NCBI GenBank assembly: GCA_049521775.1
Contig: JBEKOL010000002.1
Location: forward strand, 63,942-127,941
Source of the DNA: Syntrophales bacterium
GTDB taxonomy: Bacteria; Desulfobacterota; Syntrophia; Syntrophales; UBA2185
Direction: 5' to 3'
Length of the DNA stretch: 64,000 bases
Below are positions 6,495 to 56,656 of this stretch, piece after piece (positions within the stretch are counted from its first letter, which is position 1; every line of letters begins with the position of its first letter). A program made the translations under genes and the position numbers. The notes under the pieces are model-generated. The model saw only the letters and a list, made by a program, of their open reading frames with translations. It did no database searches and was not told where the DNA came from.

Positions 6495-6576
6495 TGTCAT
6501 TTCGACCGAAAGTAGAAATCCTGCAACCCATTTACAGCCGGCAGTATTTCTCGTCGCTTTTCTCCTCGGATTGACA
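6495..6576. repeat. degenerate copy of the TTGTCATTTCG...CGAAATGACA nested-hairpin element
   Basis: The left arm CTTGTCATTTCGACCGAAAGTAGAAATC closely matches the left arm of the 50370 copy. The right arm is decayed (ATTTCT...TCGGATTGACA). The overlapping ORF-track entries 6344..6574 and 6462..6653 are translations of this repeat. Confidence 0.55.
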
Positions 6577-23948: not shown

Positions 23949-25955
23949 ATGAAATTTGTCGACAGGCTAATGAGTCAACTCTTCAAGTTGGATCTGCGCC
24001 GCCGCCTGATAGTGGGATTCCTGATTGCCACATGTCTCACCGGGTTCATAGCCACCGTCATCGGCATATGGACGATTAATAAGAGTACAATAGACGAAGT
24101 ACAAAACCGGGTCAGACAGGATATCAATACGGCAAAACTAATCTATAGAGAAACTCTGGAAAAGATAACTTCCCAGATTCAATTTACGGCAGAAGCAGTG
24201 GACCTGCACATAGCGATAGCCAACCATGACATATCTAAAATGGAGAACTTGAGGGGCCTAATCCGGCATCGGCGCGGTACTCAGGCAGAAGACGGCGATG
24301 TGTTCCTTGATATGCTCTTAGTGGTCGACGCCAAAGGGCGTGTCCTCTACAGGGCGGCGAACGCGAAAATCAGGGGGGACAGCATGCTCTGGACATCGGT
24401 CGTGAAAAACTGCATAGAAAAGAAGTCCACACAGGCATCTACTGAACTCATGCCCATTGATGACATTCTCAGGGAGAATCCCGATCTTGCCGGGCTGGTC
24501 AAGATAGAAATCATAAAAACTCCTCTCTCCTTCGAATCGAGTGAGAAGCAACTCTCCCAAGGCATGGTAATGATGGCAGCATATCCAATCCTTGATGAGA
24601 GAAAGCGATTAATCGGCGCCGTAGTCGGAGGGGTTCTCCTTAACAGAGACTATGCCATCGTGGATAAAATAAAGGAAACCGTATACCAGGGCGAAAAGTA
24701 TAAGGGCCGTGAAATGGGTGTGGCAACCATATTTCAGGGCGGTGTGAGAATAGCCACCAATGTCATGACGAAAGACGGCGAGAGGGCTGTCGGCACTATG
24801 TTGTCCAAGGAAGTCTATGACAGGGTTATAGTGGAAGGAAAAGACTGGGTCGGCAGGGCCTTCGTGGTAAATGACTGGTACATAACCACCTATACCCCCA
24901 TCTACGATATAAGCAGGAAGCTCATAGGGGCGCTCTATGTGGGCATTCTGGAGGCAAAGTACAGAGACATAAAATGGAATACCATATGGATCAACCTGGG
25001 CATTACATCTCTCGGCATGATCATCGCCTTTATTATCTCATTTAGACTGGGGGACACCATAATAAAGCGCATACGCATGCTGAAGGAGGCCGCAGAGTCT
25101 ATAGCCGCCGGCAATCTCGATTATAAATTATCGCCCGATAAAATATCCGGATTTGATATGCTGGATGAGGCCTTCAATTATATGTCGAAATCCCTGAAGA
25201 ACCACAATGAAATGCTCCACAGGGCTCACCAGCAACTGGCCAGAACGGAGAAGCTAACGGCATTGGGTGAAATGGCGGCGGGTGTGGCCCATGAGATAAA
25301 CAACCCGCTGGGGGGCATACTCCTTTACAGCAACCTTGTTCTCGAAGATATCCCTGAAAATTCTCCTGCAAGGGAAAATATGCAGAAGATAATCTACCAG
25401 ACAAACAGGTCAAAGAGGATCGTCCAGAGCCTGCTTGACTTCGCCAGGACGCCGACGGGCGAGATGCTGCCTTTGAATATAAACGGCGTCATTGAGAGTT
25501 CCCTCAGTCTGGTAAAGGACCAGGCAATGTTCCACGGTATAGAAATAAACACCCGTCTTGCAGAAGACCTTCCTGAAGTGATCGGTGACAAGTCCAGGCT
25601 GGAAGACGTATTTCTGAATCTGTTCATCAATGCCGCCGATGCCATGAAAGGCGGCGGAACGTTAACGATTACCACCATGCAGGGTGCCGATAATTCAGTG
25701 AAGATCCTGATCTCAGACACCGGCAAAGGAATAGAAGAAAAAGATTTGCCTCATATATTCGAGCCTTTCTTTACAACAAAAGAACCCGGCCAAGGGACCG
25801 GCCTCGGACTTCCCATAGTTTACGGTATCATCAGGAAGCATAATGGCTTTATCGATGCGGAAAGCAGGTCCGGAAAGGGAGCGACTTTCACTATCTCCCT
25901 TCCCGCACATTTGGGCAGATACAGCGGCATGGACGAAGACGTGTTTTACAGTTAA
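23949..25955 (+). CDS. sensor histidine kinase with large periplasmic Cache-like domain, HAMP, HisKA and HATPase_c
   Basis: An N-terminal TM helix, a ~300-aa extracytoplasmic region, a second TM helix followed by HAMP, an H-box EMAAGVAHEINNPL, and N/G boxes (NLFINAADAM, DTGKGI, GTGLGL). Confidence 0.9.
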   Translation: MKFVDRLMSQLFKLDLRRRLIVGFLIATCLTGFIATVIGIWTINKSTIDEVQNRVRQDINTAKLIYRETLEKITSQIQFTAEAVDLHIAIANHDISKMENLRGLIRHRRGTQAEDGDVFLDMLLVVDAKGRVLYRAANAKIRGDSMLWTSVVKNCIEKKSTQASTELMPIDDILRENPDLAGLVKIEIIKTPLSFESSEKQLSQGMVMMAAYPILDERKRLIGAVVGGVLLNRDYAIVDKIKETVYQGEKYKGREMGVATIFQGGVRIATNVMTKDGERAVGTMLSKEVYDRVIVEGKDWVGRAFVVNDWYITTYTPIYDISRKLIGALYVGILEAKYRDIKWNTIWINLGITSLGMIIAFIISFRLGDTIIKRIRMLKEAAESIAAGNLDYKLSPDKISGFDMLDEAFNYMSKSLKNHNEMLHRAHQQLARTEKLTALGEMAAGVAHEINNPLGGILLYSNLVLEDIPENSPARENMQKIIYQTNRSKRIVQSLLDFARTPTGEMLPLNINGVIESSLSLVKDQAMFHGIEINTRLAEDLPEVIGDKSRLEDVFLNLFINAADAMKGGGTLTITTMQGADNSVKILISDTGKGIEEKDLPHIFEPFFTTKEPGQGTGLGLPIVYGIIRKHNGFIDAESRSGKGATFTISLPAHLGRYSGMDEDVFYS

Positions 25956-25984: not shown

Positions 25985-27328
25985 GTGACTTCGAAAGATA
26001 AAAAGATTCTGATTGTCGATGACGAGGAGTCCATGCGTGACGCATGCACACAAGTGCTGTCCCGCAAAGGGTACCAGGTAGAATGCACGGGAGACGCGCT
26101 TCGGGGGCTTGAGATGGCTCGAAAGGATATCTATGACGTGATCCTGTTGGATATCCGGATGCCCAAGATGGATGGATTAGAGATTCTCGTAAAGCTGAAA
26201 GTCGAAAGAAACATCTCTGCAAAAATCATTGTTATCACCGGCTATGCCAGCATCCCTATTGCCGTTGAGGCAATGAGGCAGGGCGCATTTAATTTCCTGA
26301 CGAAACCTTATTCCGCAGCCGATCTGAAAGGAGCGGTCGAGGATGCCCTCAAGCGGGACGAGAGCAACGCGGAAAAAGGACTTTCCCTGCTCAACGGCAC
26401 GAGCGACTATATGAAAGAGCTAAAGGAATCCATCAACCGGATAGCACAGACCGACAGCACCGTTCTGATTACGGGGGAGAGCGGGACAGGAAAAGAACTT
26501 GTGGCGCGCACCATCCACAATCTCAGCAGGAGGGCCAATCAACCATTCATCCCCGTAGACTGTTCCTCGCTGGTTGAGACCCTCATGGAAAGCGAACTGT
26601 TCGGACATGTCAAAGGGGCATTCAGCGGCGCGACGGAGTCGCGTGAGGGCCGTTTCCAGATGGCAGATAAGGGAACATTATTTCTTGACGAGATTTCCAA
26701 CATCAATCTCAACATTCAGGCCAAACTGCTTAGGGTAATCCAGGAACAGGAGGTACCCAAGGTTGGCAGATCATCGCCGGAACGGATAGATGTCAGGCTG
26801 ATTGCTGCAACGAATAGAGATATCCGCACAGAAATTGAAGCAGGAAGGTTCAGGGAGGATTTGTTCTACAGGCTTTCCGTTGTGCCTCTCCCCATAAAAC
26901 CATTGAGGGAACATAAAGCCGACATCCTGCCCATTGCTCAGCATTACCTTGATATATTCATAACGAAGTACGACAGCAAGGTGCGGTCATTTTCAGAAGA
27001 GGCAAAGAAGTCGCTCGTATCATACAGGTGGCCCGGCAATGTCAGGGAACTAAAGAACATCGTCGAGCGTCTATGCGTGCTGTGCGACCATGATGTCGTT
27101 AATCTATCTGATATATTTTATTATGGTCAGGACGATCAGGCAAAGGCCCCTGTGGTGGATTCTTCTACCGGCAGGATGACTCTAATAGATGTAGAAAAGG
27201 AACACATCGTAAAGGCTCTGAACCACTTTCACTTCCAGATCAATAAGACGGCAAAATTCCTCGGTATAGACAGGAAGACCCTCCGGATAAAGATGCGTAA
27301 TTATGGTATAAAGATGGAGCATCGTTAG
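25985..27328 (+). CDS. sigma-54-dependent response regulator (NtrC family: REC + AAA+ + Fis-type HTH)
   Basis: REC domain (ILIVDDE...LLDIRMP), Walker A GESGTGKE, the sigma-54 contact loop GAFSGA, and a C-terminal HTH ([19 protein letters not shown]). GTG start. Confidence 0.92.
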
Positions 27329-27345: not shown

Positions 27346-27382
27346 GGGGGTTATCCGCCTCAGAGACGGGGAGTTTTACCCC
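27346..27382. promoter_or_regulatory. candidate upstream activator sites (G4...C4 boxes)
   Basis: GGGGGTTATCCGCC (27346-27359) and GGGGAGTTTTACCCC (27368-27382), starting about 22 bp apart and 65-100 bp upstream of the sigma-54 -24 element. They loosely resemble the palindromes at 39756-39793. Confidence 0.3.
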
Positions 27383-27445
27383 TCAAAGTTTCCCTTTTCC
27401 TACCACTCTCTATATTTTTTCTTTATAAATCAATAAGTTACAATC

Positions 27446-27461
27446 TGGCATCATCCTTGCT
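27446..27461 (+). promoter_or_regulatory. sigma-54 (-24/-12) promoter
   Basis: TGGCAT-CATCC-TTGCT with exact GG-N10-GC spacing. It lies 40 nt upstream of the ATG at 27501 and immediately downstream of the enhancer-binding-protein gene. Confidence 0.75.
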
Positions 27462-27500: not shown

Positions 27501-27887
27501 ATGACAAAGAAAAAAATTCTCTTAATAGACGATGACAAAGATTTTCTATTCGCAACCAAACTAATTCTCGAAAAGGGCGGGTATGAGGTGTTCCTGGCAG
27601 AAGACGGCAAGAGCGGAGTTGAGATGTGGAAATCCGTGACCCCTGACCTTGCTATCATCGATATGATGATGGAGACATGGGGTGAAGGGTTCTCAGTATT
27701 GAAAAAAATCCGCGCCACAGACACCGGGAAGGATACGCCTCTTTTCATGTTGAGCGCCGTAGACTTGCAGGGTCCGTACCAGTCGTTTGAACCGCCGGCA
27801 GAATTTCCCAAGGTGAACAGGGTATTGCACAAACCGGTGAAGGCTGATGATCTCCTCGGATATATTGCCCAGGCGCTGGGAAAATAA
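27501..27887 (+). CDS. single-domain response regulator (CheY-like receiver)
   Basis: KILLIDDD...DLAIIDMMM...HKP, a standard REC layout of 128 aa. GGAGG RBS. Confidence 0.88.
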   Translation: MTKKKILLIDDDKDFLFATKLILEKGGYEVFLAEDGKSGVEMWKSVTPDLAIIDMMMETWGEGFSVLKKIRATDTGKDTPLFMLSAVDLQGPYQSFEPPAEFPKVNRVLHKPVKADDLLGYIAQALGK

Positions 27888-27892
27888 TCGGC

Positions 27893-29026
27893 ATGATGAA
27901 TGTTCAAAAACCTCTCATTTTGATCATTGATGATGAGGAATCCCTACGGGATGGATGCAGGCAGACGCTGGAAAGGTCGGGGTATGTCGTCTTGACTGCG
28001 GGGGAGGGGGTCGACGGCATCAAGATCGCGAGGGAGAATAAACCGGACATAGCCTTTGTAGATCTTAAAATGCCAGGTATATCGGGTATGGAAATCATTG
28101 AAATCCTCTCCAGAGATATACCTGATATTATCCTTATCATGATTACCGGCTACGCAACCATAGTCTCCGCTGTGGAAGCCATACAGAAAGGGGCCTATGA
28201 CTACCTTCCGAAACCGTTCAGCCCCGACCAGTTGCGGGCTGTCGCCAGGCGAGGACTTGAGCATCGTAACCTCAGGATAGAAACGAGAATTTTGAGGGAA
28301 GAAAAGGAGCGGATGGAGAGAGATTTCATTACGTTTGTAAGCCACGAAATGCGTTCCCCTCTGGTCGTCATCAGGCAATGCATGGAATCTCTCAAAGCAA
28401 TCGCCGGCAATCGCTTCGATAAAGACGTCACAGACCTTATTGAGAGATGCAGTACGCGTGTCGAGAATCTTGAGGGATTGATTGAACACTGGCTGGATCT
28501 CAGCCGAATAGAAAACGGCACCTTTGCACAAAAGAAAGAGTCCTTGAGGTTATCAGACGTCATTTCGCTCAGCGCCGAGGAATTGATGCCTATATGCAAC
28601 GAAAGAGGAATTGCACTTGAGGTAAATGTGCCGGAAAATTTATTCCAAATTGTCGGGGATGAGGAAAGCCTAGTCAGAGTATTTATCAATATCATAGGCA
28701 ATGCAACAAAATATACGCCGGATGGCGGCAGAATATGTGTCTCTGCCCGGAACGGCGAGTACTATGTTACTGTGAACATTTCGGATACAGGGATTGGCAT
28801 TCCCCAGGACAAGCTCCCCTTTATCTTTGAGCCGTTTTTCAGAGCAGGGGGCAAGGAAGAACGCCACAGAGGGTCCGGTCTCGGATTGACTTTTTGCAAG
28901 AAGATCATGGATTCTCACGGCGGGGAAATAGGCGCCACATCGAAGGAAGGTGAAGGCACAACCTGTATATTGAAATTTCCCGTTCCCCATACCAGAGCTG
29001 ATAAAGTTTCTGAGGCCCCGGCATAG
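27893..29026 (+). CDS. hybrid response regulator / histidine kinase (REC + HisKA + HATPase_c)
   Basis: REC domain (ILIIDDE...FVDLKMP...KPF), an H-box FVSHEMRSPL, and N/G boxes (NIIGNATKYT, DTGIGI, GSGLGL). Confidence 0.9.
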   Translation: MMNVQKPLILIIDDEESLRDGCRQTLERSGYVVLTAGEGVDGIKIARENKPDIAFVDLKMPGISGMEIIEILSRDIPDIILIMITGYATIVSAVEAIQKGAYDYLPKPFSPDQLRAVARRGLEHRNLRIETRILREEKERMERDFITFVSHEMRSPLVVIRQCMESLKAIAGNRFDKDVTDLIERCSTRVENLEGLIEHWLDLSRIENGTFAQKKESLRLSDVISLSAEELMPICNERGIALEVNVPENLFQIVGDEESLVRVFINIIGNATKYTPDGGRICVSARNGEYYVTVNISDTGIGIPQDKLPFIFEPFFRAGGKEERHRGSGLGLTFCKKIMDSHGGEIGATSKEGEGTTCILKFPVPHTRADKVSEAPA

Positions 29027-29079: not shown

Positions 29080-29301
29080 ATGCCCATAACATACGACGAC
29101 GCAAAAGATTACCAGTTTCATGAGAAAGACATGCCGGGCCGATGTTTTGTCTGTCATAAATACACGGACGTACTGCTGATATTCCGACAAATCAAAAGCA
29201 TGTTGCTTGTCCATCTCTGCCGGGACTGCATATATGAAAACATCGCAGATTATCTCCTGGACAATACGAGACCCTGGCTCAGCGAAAAAAACACTATTTA
29301 G
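29080..29301 (+). CDS. hypothetical small Cys-rich (zinc-ribbon-like) protein
   Basis: 73 aa with CFVC-N21-CRDC. It shares an LCR(D/Q)C.YE motif with the 29811 ORF. There is no convincing RBS, and a competing antisense ORF spans 29062..29493. Confidence 0.3.
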   Translation: MPITYDDAKDYQFHEKDMPGRCFVCHKYTDVLLIFRQIKSMLLVHLCRDCIYENIADYLLDNTRPWLSEKNTI

Positions 29302-33542: not shown

Positions 33543-34031
33543 TTATACTGGCAGAGAGGCCGACAGTAAAGGCAGGATCGCCATCATGTCGCCGATGATC
33601 TCTTCGGCTATGGCGGGGAGCTTTTCATTGAGATCTATCGATAGACTCTCATCGAAGGTTACTTCACTACCTATTTCGACACCGTAGACTGCGGCAAGGC
33701 GAGGCATCTCAAAGCCGCATTGCACGCCGAGTTCCATAAGCTCAAAGATATTTAAGCCGTGCGAGGTAAAGAGATGCAGCGTGCCGCAGCGGTCATCTGC
33801 GCCGATCTTCTTGAGTTCTCCCATCTTTCCTTCTTTCGTGGTCATGGCATCGATGATGAAGATAGTATCGTAGCCCATGATTAAGTCGAAGAGGGAAAGG
33901 CCGATCATGGCGCTTGCTGCGACATCCGCCCCGCGGATTTTGTTCCGGAGCATTTCGGCGAGCGCCAGACCCACTCCGTCATCCGACAGGATGGGATTGC
34001 CCATGCCAAGGATAAGAGTCTTCATTGTCAA
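33543..34031 (-). CDS. hydrogenase maturation endopeptidase (HyaD/FrhD family)
   Basis: LILGMGNPILSDDGVGL N-terminus, an FIIDA segment, and 162 aa length. It is the last gene of the hydrogenase operon. Confidence 0.88.
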   Translation of the reverse strand: MTMKTLILGMGNPILSDDGVGLALAEMLRNKIRGADVAASAMIGLSLFDLIMGYDTIFIIDAMTTKEGKMGELKKIGADDRCGTLHLFTSHGLNIFELMELGVQCGFEMPRLAAVYGVEIGSEVTFDESLSIDLNEKLPAIAEEIIGDMMAILPLLSASLPV

Positions 34032-34098
34032 TTCAGTCCTCCGACATCCCTCGTTTCATAAAGAAACGAAATATGCATCTTTCAATACCTCCCATCTA

Positions 34099-35559
34099 TC
34101 ATCGGCTTATTTCCCTGATCACTCTTCCTTCGTGATCTCTAATCTTTACCTGGAGCGGCATTGTGCCGGGCAGTGAGTGGGTGGCGCAGGAGAGACAGGG
34201 ATCGTAGGCCCGAAACGCCATTTCCACCATGTTCAGGAAGCCCTCCTTTACGTCCGGGCCGTGGACAAATTCCTGGGCGGCCTTCTTTACGGACAGGCAG
34301 ATGGGGGCGGCATTATTTTGCGTAGCCACGATGAGGTTGACTTTCGTGAGTATGCCTTCGTCATCGGTTTCGTAGTGGTGGAAGAGTGTTCCCCGGGGCG
34401 CCTCCACACATCCCACGCCCTTGTTTTTGAGCTTGAGATTCATGTTTCTGATATCTTTGCTGGTGAGCCGTGGTTCATCCGCGATGATCACATTATTCTC
34501 CGCGGCCTGAAGCGCGCAGATGAGCCGTGCCCAGTGCGTGGCGAGCGTGTGATGAGCGGGCTTGCCTCCCAGGGTATCGAACATGATCTCCGCTTCTTTT
34601 TGCGCAAGCGGGGTCTGCATGGCGCTGGCTACGTTGAGCCTGGCGAGCGGCGCGACACGGTATAGCGACGTACCGTTGCCTTCCGTGAGCCCCTGCCAGC
34701 CAAGCTGTCTTAAGTGGTTGAGTCTGATGTATGTCCACGGCTCCACCCATTCACCGATATGCTGGTCATAGTCGCGGGGATGGAATCTCACGTATTCTTT
34801 GCCTTCAGGGTCGATGACCTTGACCGTCCCGTCATAAAAGACAGCCCTGTCGTTCTCATCCACCAGGGCCATGTAATAAGTCTTCAGCTTATAGGCATCG
34901 TTCAGGATCAGATCCACGTAGGACTTGTTTGTGAGAACTACATCCTTGAAGAGCTGAATGGCGAATTTGGCGAAGTCGAGAGAAAATACGGCGGTGTCTT
35001 TGACCCATTTCCGGTCCTGCTCGGTAAATCCCCTCGGTACGCCACCGGGCAACCCGCCTTCCGGGTGCGGCGCCTTGGTGAAGATATGCCGGATGATGTC
35101 CCGGTTTCTCTTTCTGACCTCAATGACCTTGATGCCTATTTCCTTGCCCACCTTGCCGATAACGCCGAGGATGTTTCGCTCTTTCGGATCGGCGTGTGGA
35201 CCAACGACAAAATCGGGCGCCGCGAGGAAGAAGAAGTGTATGTAATGGTCCTCAATATAGAAGGCATTGAATTCGAGTTCCCTGATCAGCCTTGCCGCCG
35301 GGGTGGGCTCAACACTGTAAAGGTCGTCGAGTGCTTTGGTGGCAGCCATGTGGTGCGCTGAAGGGCAGACGCCGCATATATTCGGTACGATTCTCGGCAT
35401 CTCCTCTGCGGGTCTGCCGAGGCAGAAACGCTCAAACCCCCGCAGTTCGGCCACCTGCCAATAGGCATCCTTTACGTCGCCTTTCTCATCGAGAAGCAAT
35501 TCTATCTTCCCGTGTCCTTCAAGCCTGGTGATCGGGTCTATGGTTATTTTTCGCGCCAT
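34099..35559 (-). CDS. [NiFe] hydrogenase large subunit, MvhA-like (group 3)
   Basis: ITIDPITRLEGHGKI N-terminus, the L1 motif ICGVCPSAH, and a C-terminal DPCLSCATH Ni-ligand motif (Cys, not Sec). It is 486 aa. Confidence 0.92.
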   Translation of the reverse strand: MARKITIDPITRLEGHGKIELLLDEKGDVKDAYWQVAELRGFERFCLGRPAEEMPRIVPNICGVCPSAHHMAATKALDDLYSVEPTPAARLIRELEFNAFYIEDHYIHFFFLAAPDFVVGPHADPKERNILGVIGKVGKEIGIKVIEVRKRNRDIIRHIFTKAPHPEGGLPGGVPRGFTEQDRKWVKDTAVFSLDFAKFAIQLFKDVVLTNKSYVDLILNDAYKLKTYYMALVDENDRAVFYDGTVKVIDPEGKEYVRFHPRDYDQHIGEWVEPWTYIRLNHLRQLGWQGLTEGNGTSLYRVAPLARLNVASAMQTPLAQKEAEIMFDTLGGKPAHHTLATHWARLICALQAAENNVIIADEPRLTSKDIRNMNLKLKNKGVGCVEAPRGTLFHHYETDDEGILTKVNLIVATQNNAAPICLSVKKAAQEFVHGPDVKEGFLNMVEMAFRAYDPCLSCATHSLPGTMPLQVKIRDHEGRVIREISR

Positions 35560-35561
35560 GA

Positions 35562-36539
35562 TTATTTCTCCTTTTTGTTGCTCTTTCGTTTCAGCGACGC
35601 CGAAGGGAGACTGAAGCGGTAACAGTAGCCTGCCAGGTCGGCAATACCTTCGATGACTTTTCCGGCCTCCGCCTCACTTTCTGCGCCGATGAGCGAGGCC
35701 AGTCCGGAGATTAACTTCGCACCCGCGTCATCCACACCGTCAACAGGACCGAAGCAACCTCTGCAGGGAATATTGGTTCTGATGCATGTTTCGCCGCACC
35801 CTGAGCGGATCGCGGGCCCTGCGCAGAGAACGCCCTGTGCCAGGAAACACTGGTCGTCTTTCGCTTCAATCTCGTGTATCCTTTTAAACTCCGAAATTTC
35901 CATCCTCAGCGGCTTGGATTTGTTCCGTGGACAGGCGTCGCACAAGGGCTTAGTCGGTGCGAGCGTCGCGCCTCTGGGAGGCAGCTTGTCTTCCAGGACG
36001 GCAAAGACCGCGTTTGCTATGAGTTCCGGCGGCGGCGGACATCCCGGCAGATAGTAGTCCACGTGGATAATATCGTGGAGCGGATATACGCGGTCAAAGA
36101 ATTCCGGCAGCGTCAACTTGTTTCCGTTGACTTTAGTTTCAGTCTGGGGCCTGTTTTTATTCGGGTTCACCACTGTCGGCGCATCCTGGTAGACCCAGTT
36201 GAAAATTTCCTCTTTTGAAATAAAATTCGCCAACCCCGCGGTTCCTCCAAAGCAGGCGCAGGCGCCAAAGGCCAGTACAAGCTGGGATTTTTCCCGGAGG
36301 AGCTTGGCCATCTCTTCCTGTTCTGAATTACGCACGGACCCATGAAGGATGGAGAGGGCTATCTCACCCTTCTTCATCTTGCGGATGCTTTCGTACTTGA
36401 AGTCTAAGGCGACAGGCCACAGCACGATATCCACGGCATCGGCGACCGTTAGAATCACTTCGTTCAGATCCACTATGGCCTCATCGCAGCCGGCGCAGGA
36501 TGCGAGCCAGTAAATTGCTACCTTGGGTTTCTCTGCCAT
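35562..36539 (-). CDS. [NiFe] hydrogenase small subunit, MvhG-like
   Basis: KVAIYWLASCAGCDEAIVDL, FGACACFGG, and distal-cluster cysteines. The ATG at 36539 follows GGAGG; the ORF-track start at 36623 is less likely. Confidence 0.9.
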   Translation of the reverse strand: MAEKPKVAIYWLASCAGCDEAIVDLNEVILTVADAVDIVLWPVALDFKYESIRKMKKGEIALSILHGSVRNSEQEEMAKLLREKSQLVLAFGACACFGGTAGLANFISKEEIFNWVYQDAPTVVNPNKNRPQTETKVNGNKLTLPEFFDRVYPLHDIIHVDYYLPGCPPPPELIANAVFAVLEDKLPPRGATLAPTKPLCDACPRNKSKPLRMEISEFKRIHEIEAKDDQCFLAQGVLCAGPAIRSGCGETCIRTNIPCRGCFGPVDGVDDAGAKLISGLASLIGAESEAEAGKVIEGIADLAGYCYRFSLPSASLKRKSNKKEK

Positions 36540-36588
36540 ATTTTCCTCCAATCTTCCCTTTTGCTCCTTATACGTAAACTTACCCAAA

Positions 36589-36984
36589 TCACACTGCAAC
36601 CGAAAGGGGCCCCAAACTCTCAATCTCTTTTTTCATTTCTTCGATGAAGACAGGGATTTTCGTGCCTTCCGGGTCAAGGCTCAGCGCAATCTTGAGACGT
36701 CTGGGCTCGATGCCGAATTCTTTGAGCGTCTTGCGTAATAGAAGCACCCTCTTTCTTGCCTGGTAGTTGCCAGTCTGAAAATGGCATTCCTTATCGGGGC
36801 AGCCTAATATAAGCACTCCGTCTGCCCCTTCCTTGAAGGCATCTATGATATGCGTGGCGTCCACCTTGCCGCTGCAGGCCACCGGAATAAGGTTTATCAG
36901 CTTCTTGGCATAGCCGTTACCGCTCAGATAGCCCCACCCGAATTTACAGGAGAAGCATACAAGTTTGGGGGTGAACTCCTTCAT
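36589..36984 (-). CDS. methyl-viologen-reducing hydrogenase delta subunit-like protein (MvhD/FlpD)
   Basis: LVCFSCKFGWGY...IPVACSGKVDATHIIDAFKEGADGVLILGCPDKECHF is the MvhD signature. The ATG at 36984 follows GGAGG. Confidence 0.88.
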   Translation of the reverse strand: MKEFTPKLVCFSCKFGWGYLSGNGYAKKLINLIPVACSGKVDATHIIDAFKEGADGVLILGCPDKECHFQTGNYQARKRVLLLRKTLKEFGIEPRRLKIALSLDPEGTKIPVFIEEMKKEIESLGPLSVAV

Positions 36985-37056
36985 ATTATCCTCCTCGTGA
37001 CTATTTTCGTAAAACCCATTCATCAGAATAGTTGCATTTCCCTTGAGATTATCATG

Positions 37057-37683
37057 TCACAGTATGCTGCCTGTGAACAAATGTGGTGGGCATCCTTCCG
37101 GCGCCCACTGGGCAATAAGTTCTGCGTCTAATTGAACGCCTGCTTCATCCCCAAAGAAGATAATCCCATCCGACTGCTGATTTAGATAATCGACGAATAA
37201 TCTTCTTTTTACCGAAGCTGCCTTCTCATACTTCTTACGGGCCAATTTCACAGGGGTGTCGATCGCGTGAAGCCAGTTAATCAGCTGAGTGCGTCCTATA
37301 ACGATCCCATGTCTCTCTTTCAGGTACCTTCTGACCAGGGGATTGTCCCAGCGCGACTGCATGTATCCTTGATTCATCGGTGACTGAATTAATGTCTTTT
37401 TCAGATCTTCTGCGATATCAGCCGTTAGCTGGCATGGGCGGCCGAGATGCTGGTCCTCGAGCCCCTTTGTGCCTTCCGTGTTTATCCTTTTTACAAGATT
37501 ATAGATACCCTGCCGGGACATCTTGCGCCGGCGACTTAGGTGATCTATAGGCACTTTATCAATGACACCCTGCAAAATAGCTATCCTCAATCCCACACGA
37601 CCATGGCATTGTCGCGATAAATATTCATCCAAAGAAGCATGTGTAATCTCAGGATGCGTAATCATAAGTTTAGATGTTGCCAT
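37057..37683 (-). mobile_element. IS630-family transposase remnant (N-terminal 208 aa only)
   Basis: Two winged-HTH modules (MSRQGIYNLVKRI; RWDNPLVRRYLKERHGIVIGRTQLINWL) and the start of the DDE_3 domain (IIFFGDEAG). It then stops, with only about 70 nt left before mvhD. No terminal inverted repeats were identified. Confidence 0.7.
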
Positions 37684-37724
37684 ATTCTCAACTCCGTCTC
37701 ATTTGAATTCTGAAATAATGATCC

Positions 37725-39524
37725 TTAAAACGAAGCATAGACTTCGGCGATACGTTCTTCCATATCGGAGCCTATCAGTTCTCTTGCGCCGGCCGGGCAG
37801 GATGATACGCACATGCCGCAGGCCTTGCATCTGAATATGTCGGTGGCGGATACCAGGTGGCCGCCCTGCTCCTTGAGATAGGCCGCTCCGTAATGGCAGG
37901 ATGATAGACATATCCCGCACCCGCTGCACAGGTGCTCGTGAACAACAACGGAGGGCAGTTCGTCCTGCATACCGATGGATATGCAGGCCTTGCACGAGAC
38001 GCAGGGGCCGCAGCAGAGACAGCGCCTTGCCTCCTCGATGGCCTCTTTGAGGGTAAACCCTTTCTCGAACATCTGGAAGTGTACGCGCTTCTCTGCCGGT
38101 ATCCATACCACCTCGGGCTCAGACCTGTAATCTTCATCCTTGAGCTGTGGTATCTCGAATGCCTCAAATTCTTTTTTTCTGCCGGCCCTGACATCAATTC
38201 CCTTGAGATAACGCTCAATGGACTCCGCCGCCTCCTGGCCTTCCCGCATGGCATCCACCATAAAGCCGACCCTTCGCACGTCGCCACCTATAAAGACCCA
38301 GTCTTTGTTGCTGCTCTGAAGCGTGAGAGGATCCACAGCCAGCCGTCCATTTTCATCCAAGAGGCCTTCTCCCTGGAGAAACTCTCTATCCGGTCCCTGA
38401 CCGACGGTGATGATAAGGGCATCGCCGTCTATAGTGACGGTTTTTCCGGTGTCGAATTCCGGATTGAACCTGCCATCTTTATCGAAGACGCTCGTGCATT
38501 TAGGGGATACTATGCCTGTGAATCTTCCTTCCTCGCCCAATATCTTGCTTACGCCGCGGGAGTATATGGTCCTTATGCCTTCTTCCCAGGCGCCCCGGAT
38601 TTCCTCATGATCCGCGGGAATACCGTCTTTCGAGGACTTGTCCTCTGATTCGAGGGCCACCAGGGTGACGTCTCCACCGAGTCTCTTAGCTGATCGCGCC
38701 GCATCAAAGGCCACATTGCCGCCGCCTATGACGATAACCTTTTTGCCGCCCAAGTAGTCTTTCACAAGGATGCCGCGACTTACCTCATACAGGAACGTCT
38801 GCCCATACATGACGCCGTCCAGATCCTGGTTCTCCACCATTTCCCGACCAAAGGTAAGAACTCTCGGCGTGGGCGTTCCTTTGGCGATAAACACTGCCTT
38901 GTACCCGTCCTTCCTCAGTTTATCGAGGGTGAGATTCCCCTCTCCGATCCTGGAATTGTATCTTACTTCTACGCCAGCGACCCTCAGCATGTTTTCTATG
39001 ACTCTCTGAAGCACAATTTTTGGCAGGCGATAGTGGGGAATCAGCCAGAGCGCCCCTCCCAGTCTGCCTGAAGACTCGAAGATAGTTACTCTGTAGCCTT
39101 TTCTGCCGAGGTGAAAGGCGCACATCAACCCGCCCGGGCCTCCGCCTATGACAGCTACGTTTCCCTTGTCCTTAACGATGTCGTATTCTTTTTTTTCATC
39201 GAGGTGGTCTAAGAAATAGTCGGATACAAACCGCTTCAAGAGTCTCCTTCTGATGGAACCTCCCTTGCTCTGGTAATTACAACCCAACTCGCATATACCG
39301 CAGACATAGCCGCACACAGGGAAAAGCGGATTGTTCTCAAAAAGATAGTCCCCGATCTGGATCAAACCTTCTTTGGCCTGCTTGATATCTTCCGGCAGCA
39401 GAGAGATGAGAACGTTTGTGCGCTGGATATCCTCATTGATGGGACATCGCTCCTGACAAGGTGCGAGACACTGCTTGATGGCAGGCTCTACAGACGCCTC
39501 TCCCTGGATGGTGGTCTTCCACAT
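37725..39524 (-). CDS. GltD/NfnB-like FAD/NAD(P)H oxidoreductase with N-terminal Fe-S and C-terminal 2x[4Fe-4S] ferredoxin domains
   Basis: CLAPCQERCPINEDI, VAVIGGGPGGLMCAFHLGRKGYRVTIFESSGRLGGAL, a second Rossmann motif VIGGGNVAFD, and a C-terminal CLCCGPCVSCKAC...CSGCGICLSSC...CKACGMCVSSCP. Confidence 0.85.
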   Translation of the reverse strand: MWKTTIQGEASVEPAIKQCLAPCQERCPINEDIQRTNVLISLLPEDIKQAKEGLIQIGDYLFENNPLFPVCGYVCGICELGCNYQSKGGSIRRRLLKRFVSDYFLDHLDEKKEYDIVKDKGNVAVIGGGPGGLMCAFHLGRKGYRVTIFESSGRLGGALWLIPHYRLPKIVLQRVIENMLRVAGVEVRYNSRIGEGNLTLDKLRKDGYKAVFIAKGTPTPRVLTFGREMVENQDLDGVMYGQTFLYEVSRGILVKDYLGGKKVIVIGGGNVAFDAARSAKRLGGDVTLVALESEDKSSKDGIPADHEEIRGAWEEGIRTIYSRGVSKILGEEGRFTGIVSPKCTSVFDKDGRFNPEFDTGKTVTIDGDALIITVGQGPDREFLQGEGLLDENGRLAVDPLTLQSSNKDWVFIGGDVRRVGFMVDAMREGQEAAESIERYLKGIDVRAGRKKEFEAFEIPQLKDEDYRSEPEVVWIPAEKRVHFQMFEKGFTLKEAIEEARRCLCCGPCVSCKACISIGMQDELPSVVVHEHLCSGCGICLSSCHYGAAYLKEQGGHLVSATDIFRCKACGMCVSSCPAGARELIGSDMEERIAEVYASF

Positions 39525-39587
39525 GGTGATCCCTCCTCAAAAATTTTTCCGCACCTGTAGACCGCTTCCGTAAGTTATCTACCATTC

Positions 39588-39614
39588 TGTCATTTCGAGT
39601 GAAATGAAATGACA
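39588..39614. repeat. short copy of the TGTCATTTC/GAAATGACA hairpin element (in the hydrogenase operon leader)
   Basis: TGTCATTTC-GAGTGAAAT-GAAATGACA: a 9-bp perfect stem with a 9-nt loop. Confidence 0.6.
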
Positions 39615-39676
39615 TCCTTTAGGACGACATGGTATGAAGGATGCGATCTGCCAATCAGAATGTATACTTAACAATT

Positions 39677-39692
39677 AGCAATACCGATGCCA
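39677..39692 (-). promoter_or_regulatory. sigma-54 (-24/-12) promoter for the oxidoreductase-hydrogenase operon
   Basis: The minus strand reads TGGCAT-CGGTA-TTGCT with exact GG-N10-GC spacing, about 150 nt upstream of the ATG at 39524. Confidence 0.7.
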
Positions 39693-39755
39693 TATGTTTT
39701 TGTTAAATGATTTTAAATAGATATGAAGCTTGAGATGCATCTTTGCCCTTGTTCA

Positions 39756-39793
39756 GGGGTAATATTACCCCCACCTGGGGGTCTTATTACCCG
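39756..39793. promoter_or_regulatory. tandem palindromic operator/UAS sites
   Basis: GGGGTAATATTACCCC (39756-39771) is a perfect 16-nt palindrome. GGGGTCTTATTACCCG (39778-39793) is a near copy with a 22-bp centre-to-centre distance. They lie 65-115 bp upstream of the sigma-54 -24 element. Confidence 0.6.
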
Positions 39794-39916
39794 CCAGAAA
39801 CTGTGTCGTAATGCCTACTTGTCATTGCCATGGCTACTGACAAAGGTAGGGCGCTGAAACCGTAATATTGATGCGTGAGGCTAGGCCGTAATCGTCAAGA
39901 TAATAAATGAACTCCT

Positions 39917-39945
39917 TGACAAGAAATTTCGAATTTGTTTAACTG
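39917..39945 (+). promoter_or_regulatory. sigma-70-type promoter candidate for the dynamin-like gene
   Basis: TTGACA, a 17-nt spacer, then TTAACT, about 85 nt upstream of the ATG at 40031. Confidence 0.4.
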
Positions 39946-40030
39946 CCGAGCAGGTGATGGAGTTCGCCTGTAAATAAACCGCCTTTAAGGCTGATAACTC
40001 CTTCCGGCTTCTTCCTGGGGGAGTTTTTTT

Positions 40031-41710
40031 ATGTCTGATACAATCAACCATGATTCAGTGAGCCGAGTACAGGACGTTTCACAACAATCGCTGAAAAACG
40101 TTCGTGACCTCTGCTCCAGATTCTCCATTCTTTCCCTGAACCGCCAGATAGAGGCCTGCGAGAAACTGGTTATCCAGAGCCCGCCCATTGATGTGGCAAT
40201 TCTCGGCCAGTTCAAGGCAGGCAAGAGTTCCTTCATCAATAGTCTTATCGGCAAATCCGTTCTTCCCGTTGGCGTAATACCGGTTACCACGGTTATTACC
40301 CGCCTTCAATTTGGGGAAAGAGAACAAGCCGTTGTCAGGTATTTCGACGGTAGCGCATCGGAGATCGGCATTAACGATATTGAAGCTTTTACCTCGGAAG
40401 CCGAAAATCCATCCAATAAGAAAAACGTAGAGGTTGTGGATATTGAACTTCCGTCTCTCAGGGATTACGCAGGTCTGCGATTGGTGGATACCCCCGGCTT
40501 GGGAAGTGTATTCAAATATCATGTGGAAACCTCTGAAAATTGGCTTCCCCAAGTGGGGACCGCCATACTTGCCGTCAGCTCCGACCGCCCCCTTTCAGGT
40601 AACGACGTGCAATTGATTCGGGAGCTCATGCAGCACACGCCGAATATAGTCATACTCCTGACAAAAGCTGACCTTCTCTCACGGGAACAGCAGAACGAAG
40701 TCATAGAATTTTTTGAGCGAACGCTTCAGCGTGAATTAAATAAGCGGTTGCCGATCTATATATACTCGACCCGTGTGAAGACAGAGAAATACAAGGATCG
40801 ATTGGAAGAAAGCCTTCTTTTCAAGCTATCGCTAAACCGTGATTTCGAGTTCAGGAAAATCCTCCAGTACAAGATGCAGTCCCTGATAAGAGGTTGTCTC
40901 GGCTATCTCGATATCGCCCTGAAGATGTCTTTGCGGGCTGACCTTGACCGTGAGAATCTTCATAAACAGATCTTCGATGAAAAAGTTAATTTCGACCTCA
41001 TCCGTGAGGAACTTACCATCATTGCCCGCGAGAACCAGAGACAAACGCGAACCCTAATGATGAACTACCTTGATAATTTTCAGAGACCTCTCAGGAAGAA
41101 ACTCTCTCTGGATTTGGAAAAGGAGCTTTCCACGTGGAAAGTGAATCTCTGGAAACTCACCCGGAGATATGAAGAATGGCTCGCAGACCGCATGACGGAA
41201 GAGATGATGCATATCTCCAAAACAGAGCATAGACATTTCTATGGCACTCTCAACAAGGCTCACGCCAGTTTATCCAGATCAATTGAATCCTTCAGGAATC
41301 TTTTGGATAAAAATATCGAAAAGGTTCTTGGTGTGAGACTGGCTGAAGCGGACTGGAGAATTGAGGTATCAGAACCCGATCACCCTGACATCAAGACGAT
41401 AAGATCATTTGACTTCCATTTCGATCTCATCTGGTTTCTTATCCCCATGTTTATCTTCGGGGGACTTTTTGAGAAGCATTTTGTCAGCGAGATTCCCCGT
41501 GAAGTGGAAGCCAATATTTCCCGTCTTGCCGCCCAGTGGGAGGACCGCATCAACAGGGCAATCGAAGAAATGCGAAAACAGGCGATTGATTACGTAAAAG
41601 AGGAACTCTCCACCATAGACGCCTTGTTATCGAAGACGCATGGTCAAACAGATGAGATCAACGAGACCATTCAAAAACTCAATGAAGGATTGCAGGACTT
41701 AATAGCTTAA
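40031..41710 (+). CDS. bacterial dynamin-like GTPase
   Basis: G1 motif GQFKAGKSSFINSLIG, G3 motif DTPGLGS, G4 motif TKADLL, a long helical stalk, and a hydrophobic paddle-like segment FHFDLIWFLIPMFIFGGLF. It is 559 aa. Confidence 0.85.
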   Translation: MSDTINHDSVSRVQDVSQQSLKNVRDLCSRFSILSLNRQIEACEKLVIQSPPIDVAILGQFKAGKSSFINSLIGKSVLPVGVIPVTTVITRLQFGEREQAVVRYFDGSASEIGINDIEAFTSEAENPSNKKNVEVVDIELPSLRDYAGLRLVDTPGLGSVFKYHVETSENWLPQVGTAILAVSSDRPLSGNDVQLIRELMQHTPNIVILLTKADLLSREQQNEVIEFFERTLQRELNKRLPIYIYSTRVKTEKYKDRLEESLLFKLSLNRDFEFRKILQYKMQSLIRGCLGYLDIALKMSLRADLDRENLHKQIFDEKVNFDLIREELTIIARENQRQTRTLMMNYLDNFQRPLRKKLSLDLEKELSTWKVNLWKLTRRYEEWLADRMTEEMMHISKTEHRHFYGTLNKAHASLSRSIESFRNLLDKNIEKVLGVRLAEADWRIEVSEPDHPDIKTIRSFDFHFDLIWFLIPMFIFGGLFEKHFVSEIPREVEANISRLAAQWEDRINRAIEEMRKQAIDYVKEELSTIDALLSKTHGQTDEINETIQKLNEGLQDLIA

Positions 41711-41792: not shown

Positions 41793-42230
41793 ATGGAAAA
41801 GGAGAAGGGCTGTGTATTTTGCGACATCGTAGCGGGCAAGGCCGAAGCATATAAGATTTATGAAGACGAGCATTCCATCTGCATACTGGATATCCACCCT
41901 TTCACAAAGGGTCACTGCCTGGTAATTGCAAAGCGGCATGTCCAGTGGTGGCACGAACTCTCCGATGAAGAAAACACAAGCCTTTTTAAGGTGGCGAAGG
42001 TTGTCGCCAACCGGATGATGGACAAATTCCATCCCGACTTCATCTTTCTCTATGCGCGTGGCAGAAGAATTCCGCATACCCATCTTTTTTTGATCCCGAC
42101 TTACAGCGGTGATGTACTCGACCGTTTTTTCAACGCCCTGGAAAATTTTCAGGAATCACCACAGGAGCTGGCAAGACTCAAGGAGCCGCAAGCCATGGCT
42201 GAAGCAGCGAAAGTAATAGGACAAGGTTAG
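41793..42230 (+). CDS. HIT (histidine triad) family protein
   Basis: CVFCDIV N-terminal Zn-like motif, HPFTKGHCLVIAKRH, and a triad region IPHTHLFLIP in which the third His is replaced by Phe. Confidence 0.8.
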   Translation: MEKEKGCVFCDIVAGKAEAYKIYEDEHSICILDIHPFTKGHCLVIAKRHVQWWHELSDEENTSLFKVAKVVANRMMDKFHPDFIFLYARGRRIPHTHLFLIPTYSGDVLDRFFNALENFQESPQELARLKEPQAMAEAAKVIGQG

Positions 42231-50272: not shown

Positions 50273-50369
50273 TTTATATCTCCTGGTAAATTATTTGCGG
50301 AATAACCCTTTGCCTTTTGCTTAGGGCAAACTCAGTAATAGCAGCATATGAAGATCAGTTAGTTTGATT

Positions 50370-50442
50370 GTCATTTCGGGCAACACGAGAAATCATTGGC
50401 TAATGATTTGCTATAAAGATTTCTCCCTGCAGTCGAAATGAC
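50370..50442. repeat. nested-hairpin palindromic element (REP/MITE-like), best-preserved copy
   Basis: The outer helix is GTCATTTCG (50370-50378) with CGAAATGAC (50434-50442). The inner helix is GAGAAATC (50387-50394) with GATTTCTC (50418-50425). An internal loop separates the two helices. Confidence 0.65.
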
Positions 50443-50689
50443 ACCAATCGGTTGCGATGACAAAAAATTTTATAACGCCTTGTTGGTCATCAAGATTATT
50501 TCAAGCAACAAATAAGGAAATAAATTCTTCAGCTTCTGAGTTTATATACTAACATAAACGGCAAGACAAGAAGATTAGAAGCACAAAAACTTGACAAAGC
50601 CGTCCTTTTTCAATAAAAAATGGTTCAGACGGTATGATAGGCTAAGAACAGAAAATGACAAATTCCCTCAGCGGGTTGCATATCCTCGC

Positions 50690-55622: not shown

Positions 55623-56656
55623 TATTCACCTCCCGCATGTAATATTGGGGCTTGATAGTGTTCAAAACCGTAACCTGCTGCACCCAGAAGGGCAATTCGC
55701 GGATTGAGAATGACGAAAACCGGTATCTGTGAAACCAGCTCAGACATGCGTCCTTTGTAGCGAAAGGATTTCATAAACCGTCCATTTTCCAGAAATGGCA
55801 GTATGCGGCGAGGAATACCTCCCCCCAAATAAACACTGGTTGTAGCCATCACTTTGAGGGCCAAATTCCCTGCTTCTGCTCCGAGGATGGAAACAAATAT
55901 GTTAAGAGTCATCACACAGAGATCACAGCGATTAACGCGATCTAAAGCGCACTCTATGATGACCGGCACAGGGTCATTTTCCCCCGCCATCCTCATAGAC
56001 AGCCAAGATGGTTCCTCAGCATAGCACTTCTCACGCAGAAAACAATATATATTTAATATTCCCGGCCCTGAACAAACGCTTTCATAACTGACATGGCCGA
56101 GCTTCTCCTGAAGGTAAGTTAACAGTTCCCTTTCCAGATCATCGCTCGGAGCAAAATCCACATGGCCTCCCTCTGAGGGGCGCCCGCGGTAATGTGTTCC
56201 GTCCCACGTCAGAAATGCCTCGCCAAGACCGGTGCCCGGGGCAACAACAGCCGCGCTTCCTCCGGAAACGGGACTGCCTTCGTTCAGGGTATGGAGATCC
56301 GATGGCTCCAGAAGGGGCACCGCGAAGGCAATGGCCTCAAGATCATTCAGCAGTCTGACGAATGGCAGGTTCAGTTCCCTGCCGAGTTTGTTTTCATCGA
56401 TGATCCATGGCAGGTTGGTAATCTTGGCGGTGCCTTTCATGACCGGGCCCGCCACACCGAAGCAGGCAGCATCCGTTCTAATATTAATGCCTTTGAGAAA
56501 TTCCCGCACGATGGTCATGAAATCAGGAAACTGTCTGCTCCGAAAGTCCGCCTCTATTAGAGGAGAACGCAACCCCTTTTCTTTTGAGAAGATTCCGAGG
56601 CGAGTATTTGTTCCGCCGATGTCGCCTGCTAGTAATATGGCCATTTTCTTTATCAC
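55622..56656 (-). CDS. glk: glucokinase
   Basis: LLAGDIGGTNTRLGIF ATP-binding N-terminus and 344 aa length; Glk family layout. Confidence 0.85.
   Translation of the reverse strand: MIKKMAILLAGDIGGTNTRLGIFSKEKGLRSPLIEADFRSRQFPDFMTIVREFLKGINIRTDAACFGVAGPVMKGTAKITNLPWIIDENKLGRELNLPFVRLLNDLEAIAFAVPLLEPSDLHTLNEGSPVSGGSAAVVAPGTGLGEAFLTWDGTHYRGRPSEGGHVDFAPSDDLERELLTYLQEKLGHVSYESVCSGPGILNIYCFLREKCYAEEPSWLSMRMAGENDPVPVIIECALDRVNRCDLCVMTLNIFVSILGAEAGNLALKVMATTSVYLGGGIPRRILPFLENGRFMKSFRYKGRMSELVSQIPVFVILNPRIALLGAAGYGFEHYQAPILHAGGE

Follow-up and report, generated by a model that had tools for sequence, protein, structure and literature searches.

In an uncultured bacterium of the order Syntrophales, found in peat metagenomes, a six-gene operon for an Mvh-type [NiFe] hydrogenase is predicted to be driven by a sigma-54 promoter that an enhancer-binding protein (EBP) activates from two upstream activating sites (UAS). 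The operon, the promoter and the proposed activator all lie within one stretch of 64,000 nt, here called the window, to which all coordinates refer. The promoter is labelled P_hyd, and a second sigma-54 promoter, which follows the EBP gene, is labelled P_RR. The model combines a sigma-54 promoter at P_hyd, tandem UAS, and the window EBP (25985-27328) with an sCache-domain sensor kinase as the activator system. As a whole it is given a probability of roughly 80%.

P_hyd, its upstream sites and their conservation

The hydrogenase operon and its plus-strand neighbour are divergent. An intergenic region of 506 bp separates the minus-strand ATG at 39524, which begins a 599-aa open reading frame (ORF), from the plus-strand gene start at 40031. 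Within this region, P_hyd occupies 39692-39677 of the minus strand. It reads TGGCATCGGTATTGCT (TGGCAT-N5-TTGCT) and matches the pattern TGGCAY-N5-TTGCW exactly, with its GG doublet (39691-39690) and GC doublet (39679-39678) 10 bp apart. The element stands about 142 nt 5' of the ATG in the correct orientation. Transcription of the operon is predicted to start near 39666, about 12 nt past the GC doublet. From the promoter position, the 5' leader (39525-39666, minus strand) is predicted to be about 142 nt long; it includes a hairpin at 39588-39614.

Two exact matches to the sigma-54 pattern occur in the window, P_hyd being one of them, where 0.27 are expected; at least two are seen in 4 of 100 shuffled sequences. 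When up to one mismatch is allowed, 5 matches are found and 4.3 expected, with no enrichment over shuffles. A match to the pattern therefore proves nothing on its own. A search of the intergenic region (39450-40100) for sigma-70-like promoters found none.

P_hyd is preceded by two UAS. The proximal one, GGGGTAATATTACCCC at 39756-39771, is a perfect 16-nt palindrome, and the distal one, GGGGTCTTATTACCCG at 39778-39793, is an imperfect palindrome. If the C of the GC doublet is set as -12, their centres fall at about -97 and -119, and the centres of the two 16-nt palindromes are 22 bp apart. Such spacing (21-22 bp in the window, 20-22 bp in relatives) places tandem dyads on the same face of the helix. 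An initial annotation of this DNA had proposed both the sigma-54 element and the two phased palindromes upstream of it, and all three sequences that it quoted are present at the positions it gave.

The same annotation described the repeated unit as GGGG-N8-CCC(C). The elements are real and form conserved islands, but the unit that is conserved across relatives is 15 bp long, GGGG-N7-CCCC, with an A/T-rich, asymmetric interior and the oriented consensus GGGG-Y/A-A-A-W-A-N-T-CCCC. In this form the distal UAS is the 15-mer GGGTAATAAGACCCC on the minus strand (39792-39778). The perfect 16-mer, whose spacer is 8 nt, is specific to the window's own clade. The proximal UAS of the window may be read either as a 15-mer, GGGG-N7-ACCC, or as a 16-mer, GGGG-N8-CCCC.

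GGGG-N8-CCCC occurs once in the window (39756), and so does GGGG-N7-CCCC (27368). Each of the two stands 78-79 bp upstream of one exact sigma-54 match, in the correct orientation. A scan of the window with a position weight matrix ranks the proximal site of P_RR first and the proximal UAS of P_hyd second. It yields no further convincing target in the window: the next matches, at 55970 and 28922, have no promoter, and the latter is intragenic. In the fetched loci and the window together (1.445 Mb), the GGGG/CCCC element has 130 copies, of which about 50 belong to the P_hyd and P_RR promoter classes.

Sequence comparison with related genomes provides the evidence for the promoter, its sites, their geometry and conservation, and the linkage of genes described below. 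Graded orthologues were fetched, and the 599-aa first protein of the operon was then used as query against one genome of each species; cassette and operon genes in the relatives were mapped by tblastn. Ten contigs encoding an identical 599-aa protein (L001-L010) have identical intergenic DNA and are comparatively uninformative.

The promoter is kept upstream of the orthologous operon, with 0-2 mismatches, in 25 of 25 species-level genomes whose first operon protein is at least 71% identical. These are metagenome-assembled genomes of Syntrophales, Smithella, Syntrophaceae, Desulfomonilia and Syntrophobacterales. All 25 also carry sites of the GGGG-N7(8)-CCC(C) type. Counted from the T of TGGCA, these begin about 100 and 79 bp upstream, usually as a pair with a spacing of 20-22 bp; a few genomes have one degenerate member. 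Most of the genomes have their proximal site at -78 to -83 (or -70) relative to TGGCA, and in three it is degenerate; the distal one is of the GGGGnATAAGACCCC type, 20-22 bp further upstream. Thus the tandem phased sites first noticed in the window recur as conserved islands at about -97 and -119. The DNA between and around these islands diverges among the more distant members of the group.

Two genomes have both sites one helical turn nearer the promoter, at offsets of about 91 and 70. The distances from proximal site to promoter form three groups (69-70, 76-83 and 86-87 bp) with steps of about 10 bp, which is consistent with a constraint on helical phase. The arrangement was found in none of 21 orthologues at or below 67% identity, from Acidobacteriota, Geobacteraceae, Syntrophorhabdales and other groups. 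Among these, a single -24/-12-like match, with one mismatch and without upstream sites, lies within 300 bp of the gene. Given this pattern of conservation, P_hyd and its upstream sites very probably constitute a functional sigma-54 promoter with its enhancer.

The candidate activator and the alternatives

The EBP at 25985-27328 (plus strand) is the sole one in the window, as the initial annotation had also found. It is an NtrC-family response regulator with a REC-AAA+-HTH_8 arrangement (PF00072, PF00158 with E = 1e-68, and PF02954) and a Walker A motif, GESGTGKE, at residue 164. Its helix-turn-helix (HTH) domain is nearly invariant across the orthologue group. The gene is preceded by that of a sensor histidine kinase (23949-25955, plus strand; Pfam domains sCache_3_3-HAMP-HisKA-HATPase), the presumed partner of the EBP. 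Orthologues of the kinase gene in relatives lie beside the EBP gene or beside the hydrogenase operon; in Smithella-like genomes they are found on the opposite side of that operon.

Directly after the EBP gene stands P_RR (27446-27461, plus strand), the second exact sigma-54 match of the window, which reads TGGCATCATCCTTGCT. Its UAS pair consists of GGGGTTATCCGCCTC at 27347-27361 and GGGGAGTTTTACCCC at 27368-27382. The two are 21 bp apart with centres at about -118 and -97, and GGGGAGTTTTACCCC stands 78 bp upstream of the promoter. A perfect IHF consensus, AATCAATAAGTTA (27428-27440, plus strand), precedes P_RR. Downstream on the same strand, Pfam matches and gene calls on a near-identical contig identify a CheY-like receiver (27501-27887) and a receiver-HisKA-HATPase hybrid kinase (27893-29026). 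The last gene behind P_RR encodes a small Cys-rich protein (29080-29301).

Orthologous cassettes of kinase, EBP, CheY-like receiver and hybrid kinase can be used to trace P_RR in other genomes. It was located by a first scan in 13 of 14 cassettes, and by a later scan in the fourteenth (L020). All 13 of the first scan have GGGG-N7-CCCC at -76 to -79 from TGGCA. A second site 21 bp further upstream is found in the window clade.

Two lines of evidence connect the EBP with P_hyd. The first is linkage: in at least 11 other genomes, no more than 10 kb separates the hydrogenase operon from a cassette orthologue whose EBP is 64-91% identical to that of the window. Three arrangements are seen: the cassette is upstream of the operon, either on its strand or divergent from it, or it is downstream and convergent. 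A cassette beside the operon is seen only where the sigma-54 promoter is present. The second is the motif that P_hyd and P_RR have in common. Because of this linkage and this common motif, the window EBP is considered the probable activator of P_hyd. The initial annotation had put it forward as a candidate, and the linkage in relatives, together with the same site at the same offset at P_RR, strengthens that proposal.

From these observations we infer binding, the identity of the activator, a sensed signal and activation as the direction of regulation, in the following scheme. RNA polymerase with sigma-54 would form a closed complex on TGGCAT-N5-TTGCT. Dimers of the NtrC-family regulator would bind the two GGGG-N7(8)-CCCC sites near -97 and -119, on the same face of the helix. 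The sCache kinase would act as partner of the EBP, and the phosphorylated EBP would then oligomerise, loop the DNA to the polymerase and open the promoter with ATP. The same EBP would also activate P_RR, and with it the CheY-like receiver and the hybrid kinase. In related genomes it would additionally activate operons for formate dehydrogenase and electron transfer flavoprotein (ETF). To judge from the domain family, the signal for the kinase might be an organic acid, which is only a guess.

Several observations weigh against this model. P_hyd lacks a consensus IHF site: no match to WATCAANNNNTTR with fewer than two mismatches was found, and in its place there is only an A/T-rich, partly conserved tract. 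The RpoN box (RRT[VI][ATS]KYR) was found neither in the window nor in any fetched locus; the relative Syntrophobacter fumaroxidans has one rpoN (PMC3570798). The spacer of the proximal UAS is 8 nt in the window and 7 nt in the deeper consensus. Finally, residues 211-216 of the EBP form the loop GAFSGA, not the canonical GAFTGA. GAFSGA, GSFSGA or GAFSGS is present in 29 of 29 EBP orthologues, and unrelated EBPs of the same loci have GAFTGA. The variant thus looks like a lineage signature of the loop that contacts sigma-54. GAFSGA is among the loop variants expected to keep activity and is recorded in two EBPs of Desulfovibrio vulgaris (Kazakov et al., PMC4641369).

Other points on the same side concern the choice of regulator. 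About 4.5 kb, including other genes, separates cassette and operon in the window, and in 9-10 genomes the promoter and sites are kept but no cassette is found within 10 kb. S. fumaroxidans encodes 31 EBPs (PMC3570798), and related bacteria have dozens. The promoter and its sites may be real while a paralogous EBP encoded elsewhere activates P_hyd, leaving the window EBP in control of P_RR alone. This explanation is kept mainly because the site type is not exclusive to the window EBP: several matches to GGGG-N7-CCCC, found in scans, stand at sigma-54 promoters beside EBPs that are about 40% identical (38-42%) and have a DRKTL-type recognition helix. Moreover, the inner bases differ between the P_RR site (AGTTTTA) and the P_hyd sites (TAATATT and AATAAGA).

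These differences are reduced when the P_RR sites are read on the opposite strand, where they (GGGGYAAAAYnCCCC) fall inside the range of the P_hyd sites, and site offsets are identical at the two promoters. Linkage of cassette and operon recurs in independent arrangements and in three orientations, and none of these operons has another EBP gene nearby. A paralogue is thus an unlikely activator, and the window EBP is preferred.

The palindromes could also be operators for a factor other than an EBP, or serve the divergent gene. This gene, for a dynamin-family GTPase, lies behind a fluoride riboswitch (39944-40010), and the sites are about 150-190 bp upstream of the riboswitch within a divergent intergenic region. 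However, the upstream neighbour differs in most relatives, yet the distance from the sites to the sigma-54 promoter is fixed, and the same sites are found at P_RR, which has no divergent gene beside it. Because the neighbouring gene differs between genomes, the sites are assigned to the hydrogenase promoter. A role for them in expression of the riboswitch gene was rejected on the same ground, and this explanation as a whole is very improbable.

That the matches arose by chance, or that the palindromes form a dispersed repeat (of the REP or MITE kind) unlinked to promoters, has a negligible probability: although the one-mismatch sigma-54 pattern is as frequent as in shuffled sequence, the 64 kb hold just two elements, each at a sigma-54 promoter, at equal offset from the only two exact matches and with the best matrix scores, the composite pattern retrieves the same gene classes from a metagenome collection, and conservation in 25 of 25 orthologous loci with diverging flanks rules both out. 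The initial annotation had itself named a dispersed repeat without promoter association as what would speak against its proposal, and the palindromes are not of that kind.

Further putative targets and neighbouring elements

The fetched loci contain 115 sigma-54-like matches. A site is found upstream of 35 of them, and nearly all of these are P_hyd or P_RR. One additional putative target is an operon for RsbRD_N-like and cyclic-nucleotide (cNMP)-binding proteins; in some relatives such genes are located between P_hyd and the hydrogenase genes. Another is a gene in which a Cys-rich domain is joined to EtfB.

The Cys-rich protein encoded last behind P_RR is related to this domain. It has about 73 aa and no Pfam match, and shares 49% identity with an N-terminal extension of the EtfB gene. 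In three Smithella-like genomes (L020, L023 and L039) the Cys-rich homologue and EtfB are fused in a single ORF, and the gene in L023 (19345-20489) has its own sigma-54 promoter and site.

A metagenome collection was also scanned, with no protein as seed, for two N7 sites together with a sigma-54 promoter, and the loci were classed by their first downstream gene. Of the 54 loci returned, about 13 were P_hyd and 13 P_RR. In two loci an IS630-like HTH gene came first, and in one EtfB. Four were NuoE-NuoF-receiver-FdhA (selenocysteine) formate dehydrogenase operons, and two were operons for an FAD/NAD-binding protein, an FdhA-like protein and a Fer4_22 protein. As judged from sequence, the roughly 35 loci for hydrogenase, formate dehydrogenase, ETF and the cassette are one coherent set.

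Examples of formate dehydrogenase operons behind tandem sites and a sigma-54 promoter are found at L130 (9191-14031) and L110 (522-4422). FdhA in these operons is split by an in-frame stop, presumably a TGA for selenocysteine, and a receiver-domain gene is embedded. In L110, the FdhA-like operon is followed directly by the orthologous kinase-EBP-CheY-hybrid-kinase cassette.

The remaining loci, about 19, were classed as other. Several of them adjoin the 38-42%-identical EBPs with a DRKTL-type helix, and others come from G+C-rich DNA. For instance, tandem GGGG-N7-CCCC elements stand at sigma-54 promoters of unrelated genes in L097, L101, L105, L109, L114 and L134/L145 (a URO-D-like methyltransferase, DhaK and an acyltransferase are among them). 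The neighbouring EBPs in these loci are 38-42% identical to that of the window, and several of them have the DRKTL-type helix. The presence of this class hints at a broader EBP subfamily that uses the GGGG-N7-CCCC half-site.

A wider proposal can be made tentatively, although it is more doubtful than the assignment of P_hyd itself. The cassette could act as a master switch that governs electron disposal throughout the lineage of syntrophic Syntrophia, with one extracellular signal acting through the sCache kinase, a GGGG-N7-CCCC code, a DRKTLR helix and the GAFSGA loop. If true, the switch would span relatives in Syntrophales, Smithella, Syntrophobacterales and Desulfomonilia, and the Mvh-type hydrogenase, NAD-linked formate dehydrogenases and ETF genes would be co-activated.

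The six genes of the hydrogenase operon (33543-39524, minus strand) were identified by Pfam and NCBIfam matches, and their order is the same in relatives. The first encodes the 599-aa protein, a GltD/NfnB-like FAD and iron-sulfur (FeS) oxidoreductase (39524-37725). It is followed by a 208-aa protein resembling the N-terminal HTH of IS630 (37683-37057), MvhD (37023-36589), the [NiFe] hydrogenase small subunit (36623-35562), the large subunit (35559-34099; nearest model VhuA, under its cut-off) and a maturation protease (34031-33543).

The 208-aa ORF, between the oxidoreductase and MvhD genes, matches only the N-terminal HTH part of IS630 transposase (HTH_32; 74 bits in NCBIfam, where the cut-off is 100). 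Its product is 60-87% identical within the closest clade, and the ORF is absent from orthologous operons at or below 82% identity. In L116 and L137 this ORF comes first behind the P_hyd-type promoter. The protein may be a domesticated DNA-binding protein.

The leader hairpin (39588-39614) had been described in the initial annotation as a 9-bp hairpin of a local repeat family. The hairpin is real, with a loop of 9 nt; its arms are kept in L016 and L050 and recur elsewhere, but the RNA structure is not significant. The fold of the leader including the hairpin is no better than that of shuffled sequence (z = -0.75), and a reading of the leader as a riboregulator was dropped on this value.

The 10-mer arm TGTCATTTCG recurs at 6495, in a single copy, and at 50369, and its complement CGAAATGACA at 50434, so that the pair is spread over three intergenic regions. 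At 50369-50444, TGTCATTTCG and CGAAATGACA form inverted arms 56 nt apart. A 9-mer, TGTCATTTC, has 5 copies on both strands, where about 0.5 would be expected by our own estimate. The repeats of this 9-mer and of the arms could be operators or a small repeat family.

On the divergent side, an imperfect inverted repeat, CCTACTTGTCA...TGACAAAGGTAGG, is found at 39816-39850 (plus strand), just upstream of the distal UAS and before the riboswitch promoter. The pentamer GTAAT has five copies in 39756-39895. The fluoride riboswitch (plus strand) matches RF01734 with 49.7 bits and E = 9e-11, and a terminator-like hairpin is seen at 40001-40021. The riboswitch is directly 5' of the dynamin-family GTPase gene (40031-41710), and a HIT gene follows at 41793-42230. 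The pair of riboswitch and dynamin gene is retained in L050 and L137, with 57 bits each. A literature search found no paper that names both a fluoride riboswitch and a dynamin; the GTPase would be an unusual fluoride-responsive gene.

Significance and comparison with known systems

Syntrophic degraders live near the thermodynamic limit, and the control of their hydrogen and formate production is poorly known. Literature searches found general papers on sigma-54 regulons, and none that described a regulator of these syntroph hydrogenases or this motif. The module yields a regulon that can be sought in metatranscriptomes of peat and digesters, and an experimental handle in cultivable relatives. 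The DNA motif, paired with its recognition helix, can be useful in studies of EBP specificity.

A known example of such control is HoxA of Cupriavidus necator (Ralstonia eutropha), which acts with HoxJ and the regulatory hydrogenase HoxBC. HoxA is an NtrC-family activator of sigma-54 promoters of [NiFe] hydrogenases and uses upstream sites. The signal in Cupriavidus is hydrogen, sensed through the regulatory hydrogenase, and the hydrogenases belong to groups 1 and 3d. The likeness lies in an NtrC-family regulator that acts on sigma-54-dependent promoters of hydrogenase operons. In the window, by contrast, the kinase is a membrane protein with an sCache domain, no regulatory hydrogenase is encoded nearby, and the enzyme is Mvh/Vhu-like with a GltD-like partner. 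The DNA motif and the lineage also differ.

FhlA of E. coli, which controls hyc, hyp and fdhF, is likewise a sigma-54 EBP for hydrogenase and formate dehydrogenase genes, with sites about 100 bp upstream, and the extended set of putative targets described here likewise combines hydrogenase and formate dehydrogenase operons. However, FhlA is a one-component activator whose GAF domain binds formate, whereas the EBP described here is a response regulator.

Two-component EBPs of the NtrC, AtoC and ZraR type have the same REC-AAA+-HTH_8 domains and tandem dyads about two helical turns apart, some 100 bp upstream of the -24/-12 element. The window EBP differs from this type in its GAFSGA loop, its DNA motif and its targets. 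Its best solved relatives are the Aquifex NtrC-family proteins 4l4u (E = 1e-95) and 1ny5. Its scores are below the cut-off of every curated NCBIfam equivalog (AtoC 400 of 714 bits, NtrC 380 of 559, ZraR 358 of 760, FhlA 262 of 830), so it was ruled out as an equivalog of any of the four.

Control of hydrogenases by sigma-54 and EBPs has been noted for Proteobacteria (PMC12316311). Within the same phylum as the Syntrophales, sigma-54/EBP regulons of D. vulgaris have been reconstructed computationally; for instance, DVU2394 was assigned to the energy-metabolism operon DVU2405-2399 (PMC4641369). The type of inference is the same as here: co-localisation of the EBP gene, a conserved -24/-12 element and an upstream palindrome. 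The order, the EBP orthologue group, the motif and the targets are different, and that study contains no hydrogenase regulon, nor the word hydrogenase. The advance made here is one of annotation and of a regulon, with no new principle. Compared with these systems, the proposed mechanism is textbook sigma-54 activation, and what is new is the predicted assignment of regulator, motif and regulon across a syntrophic lineage.

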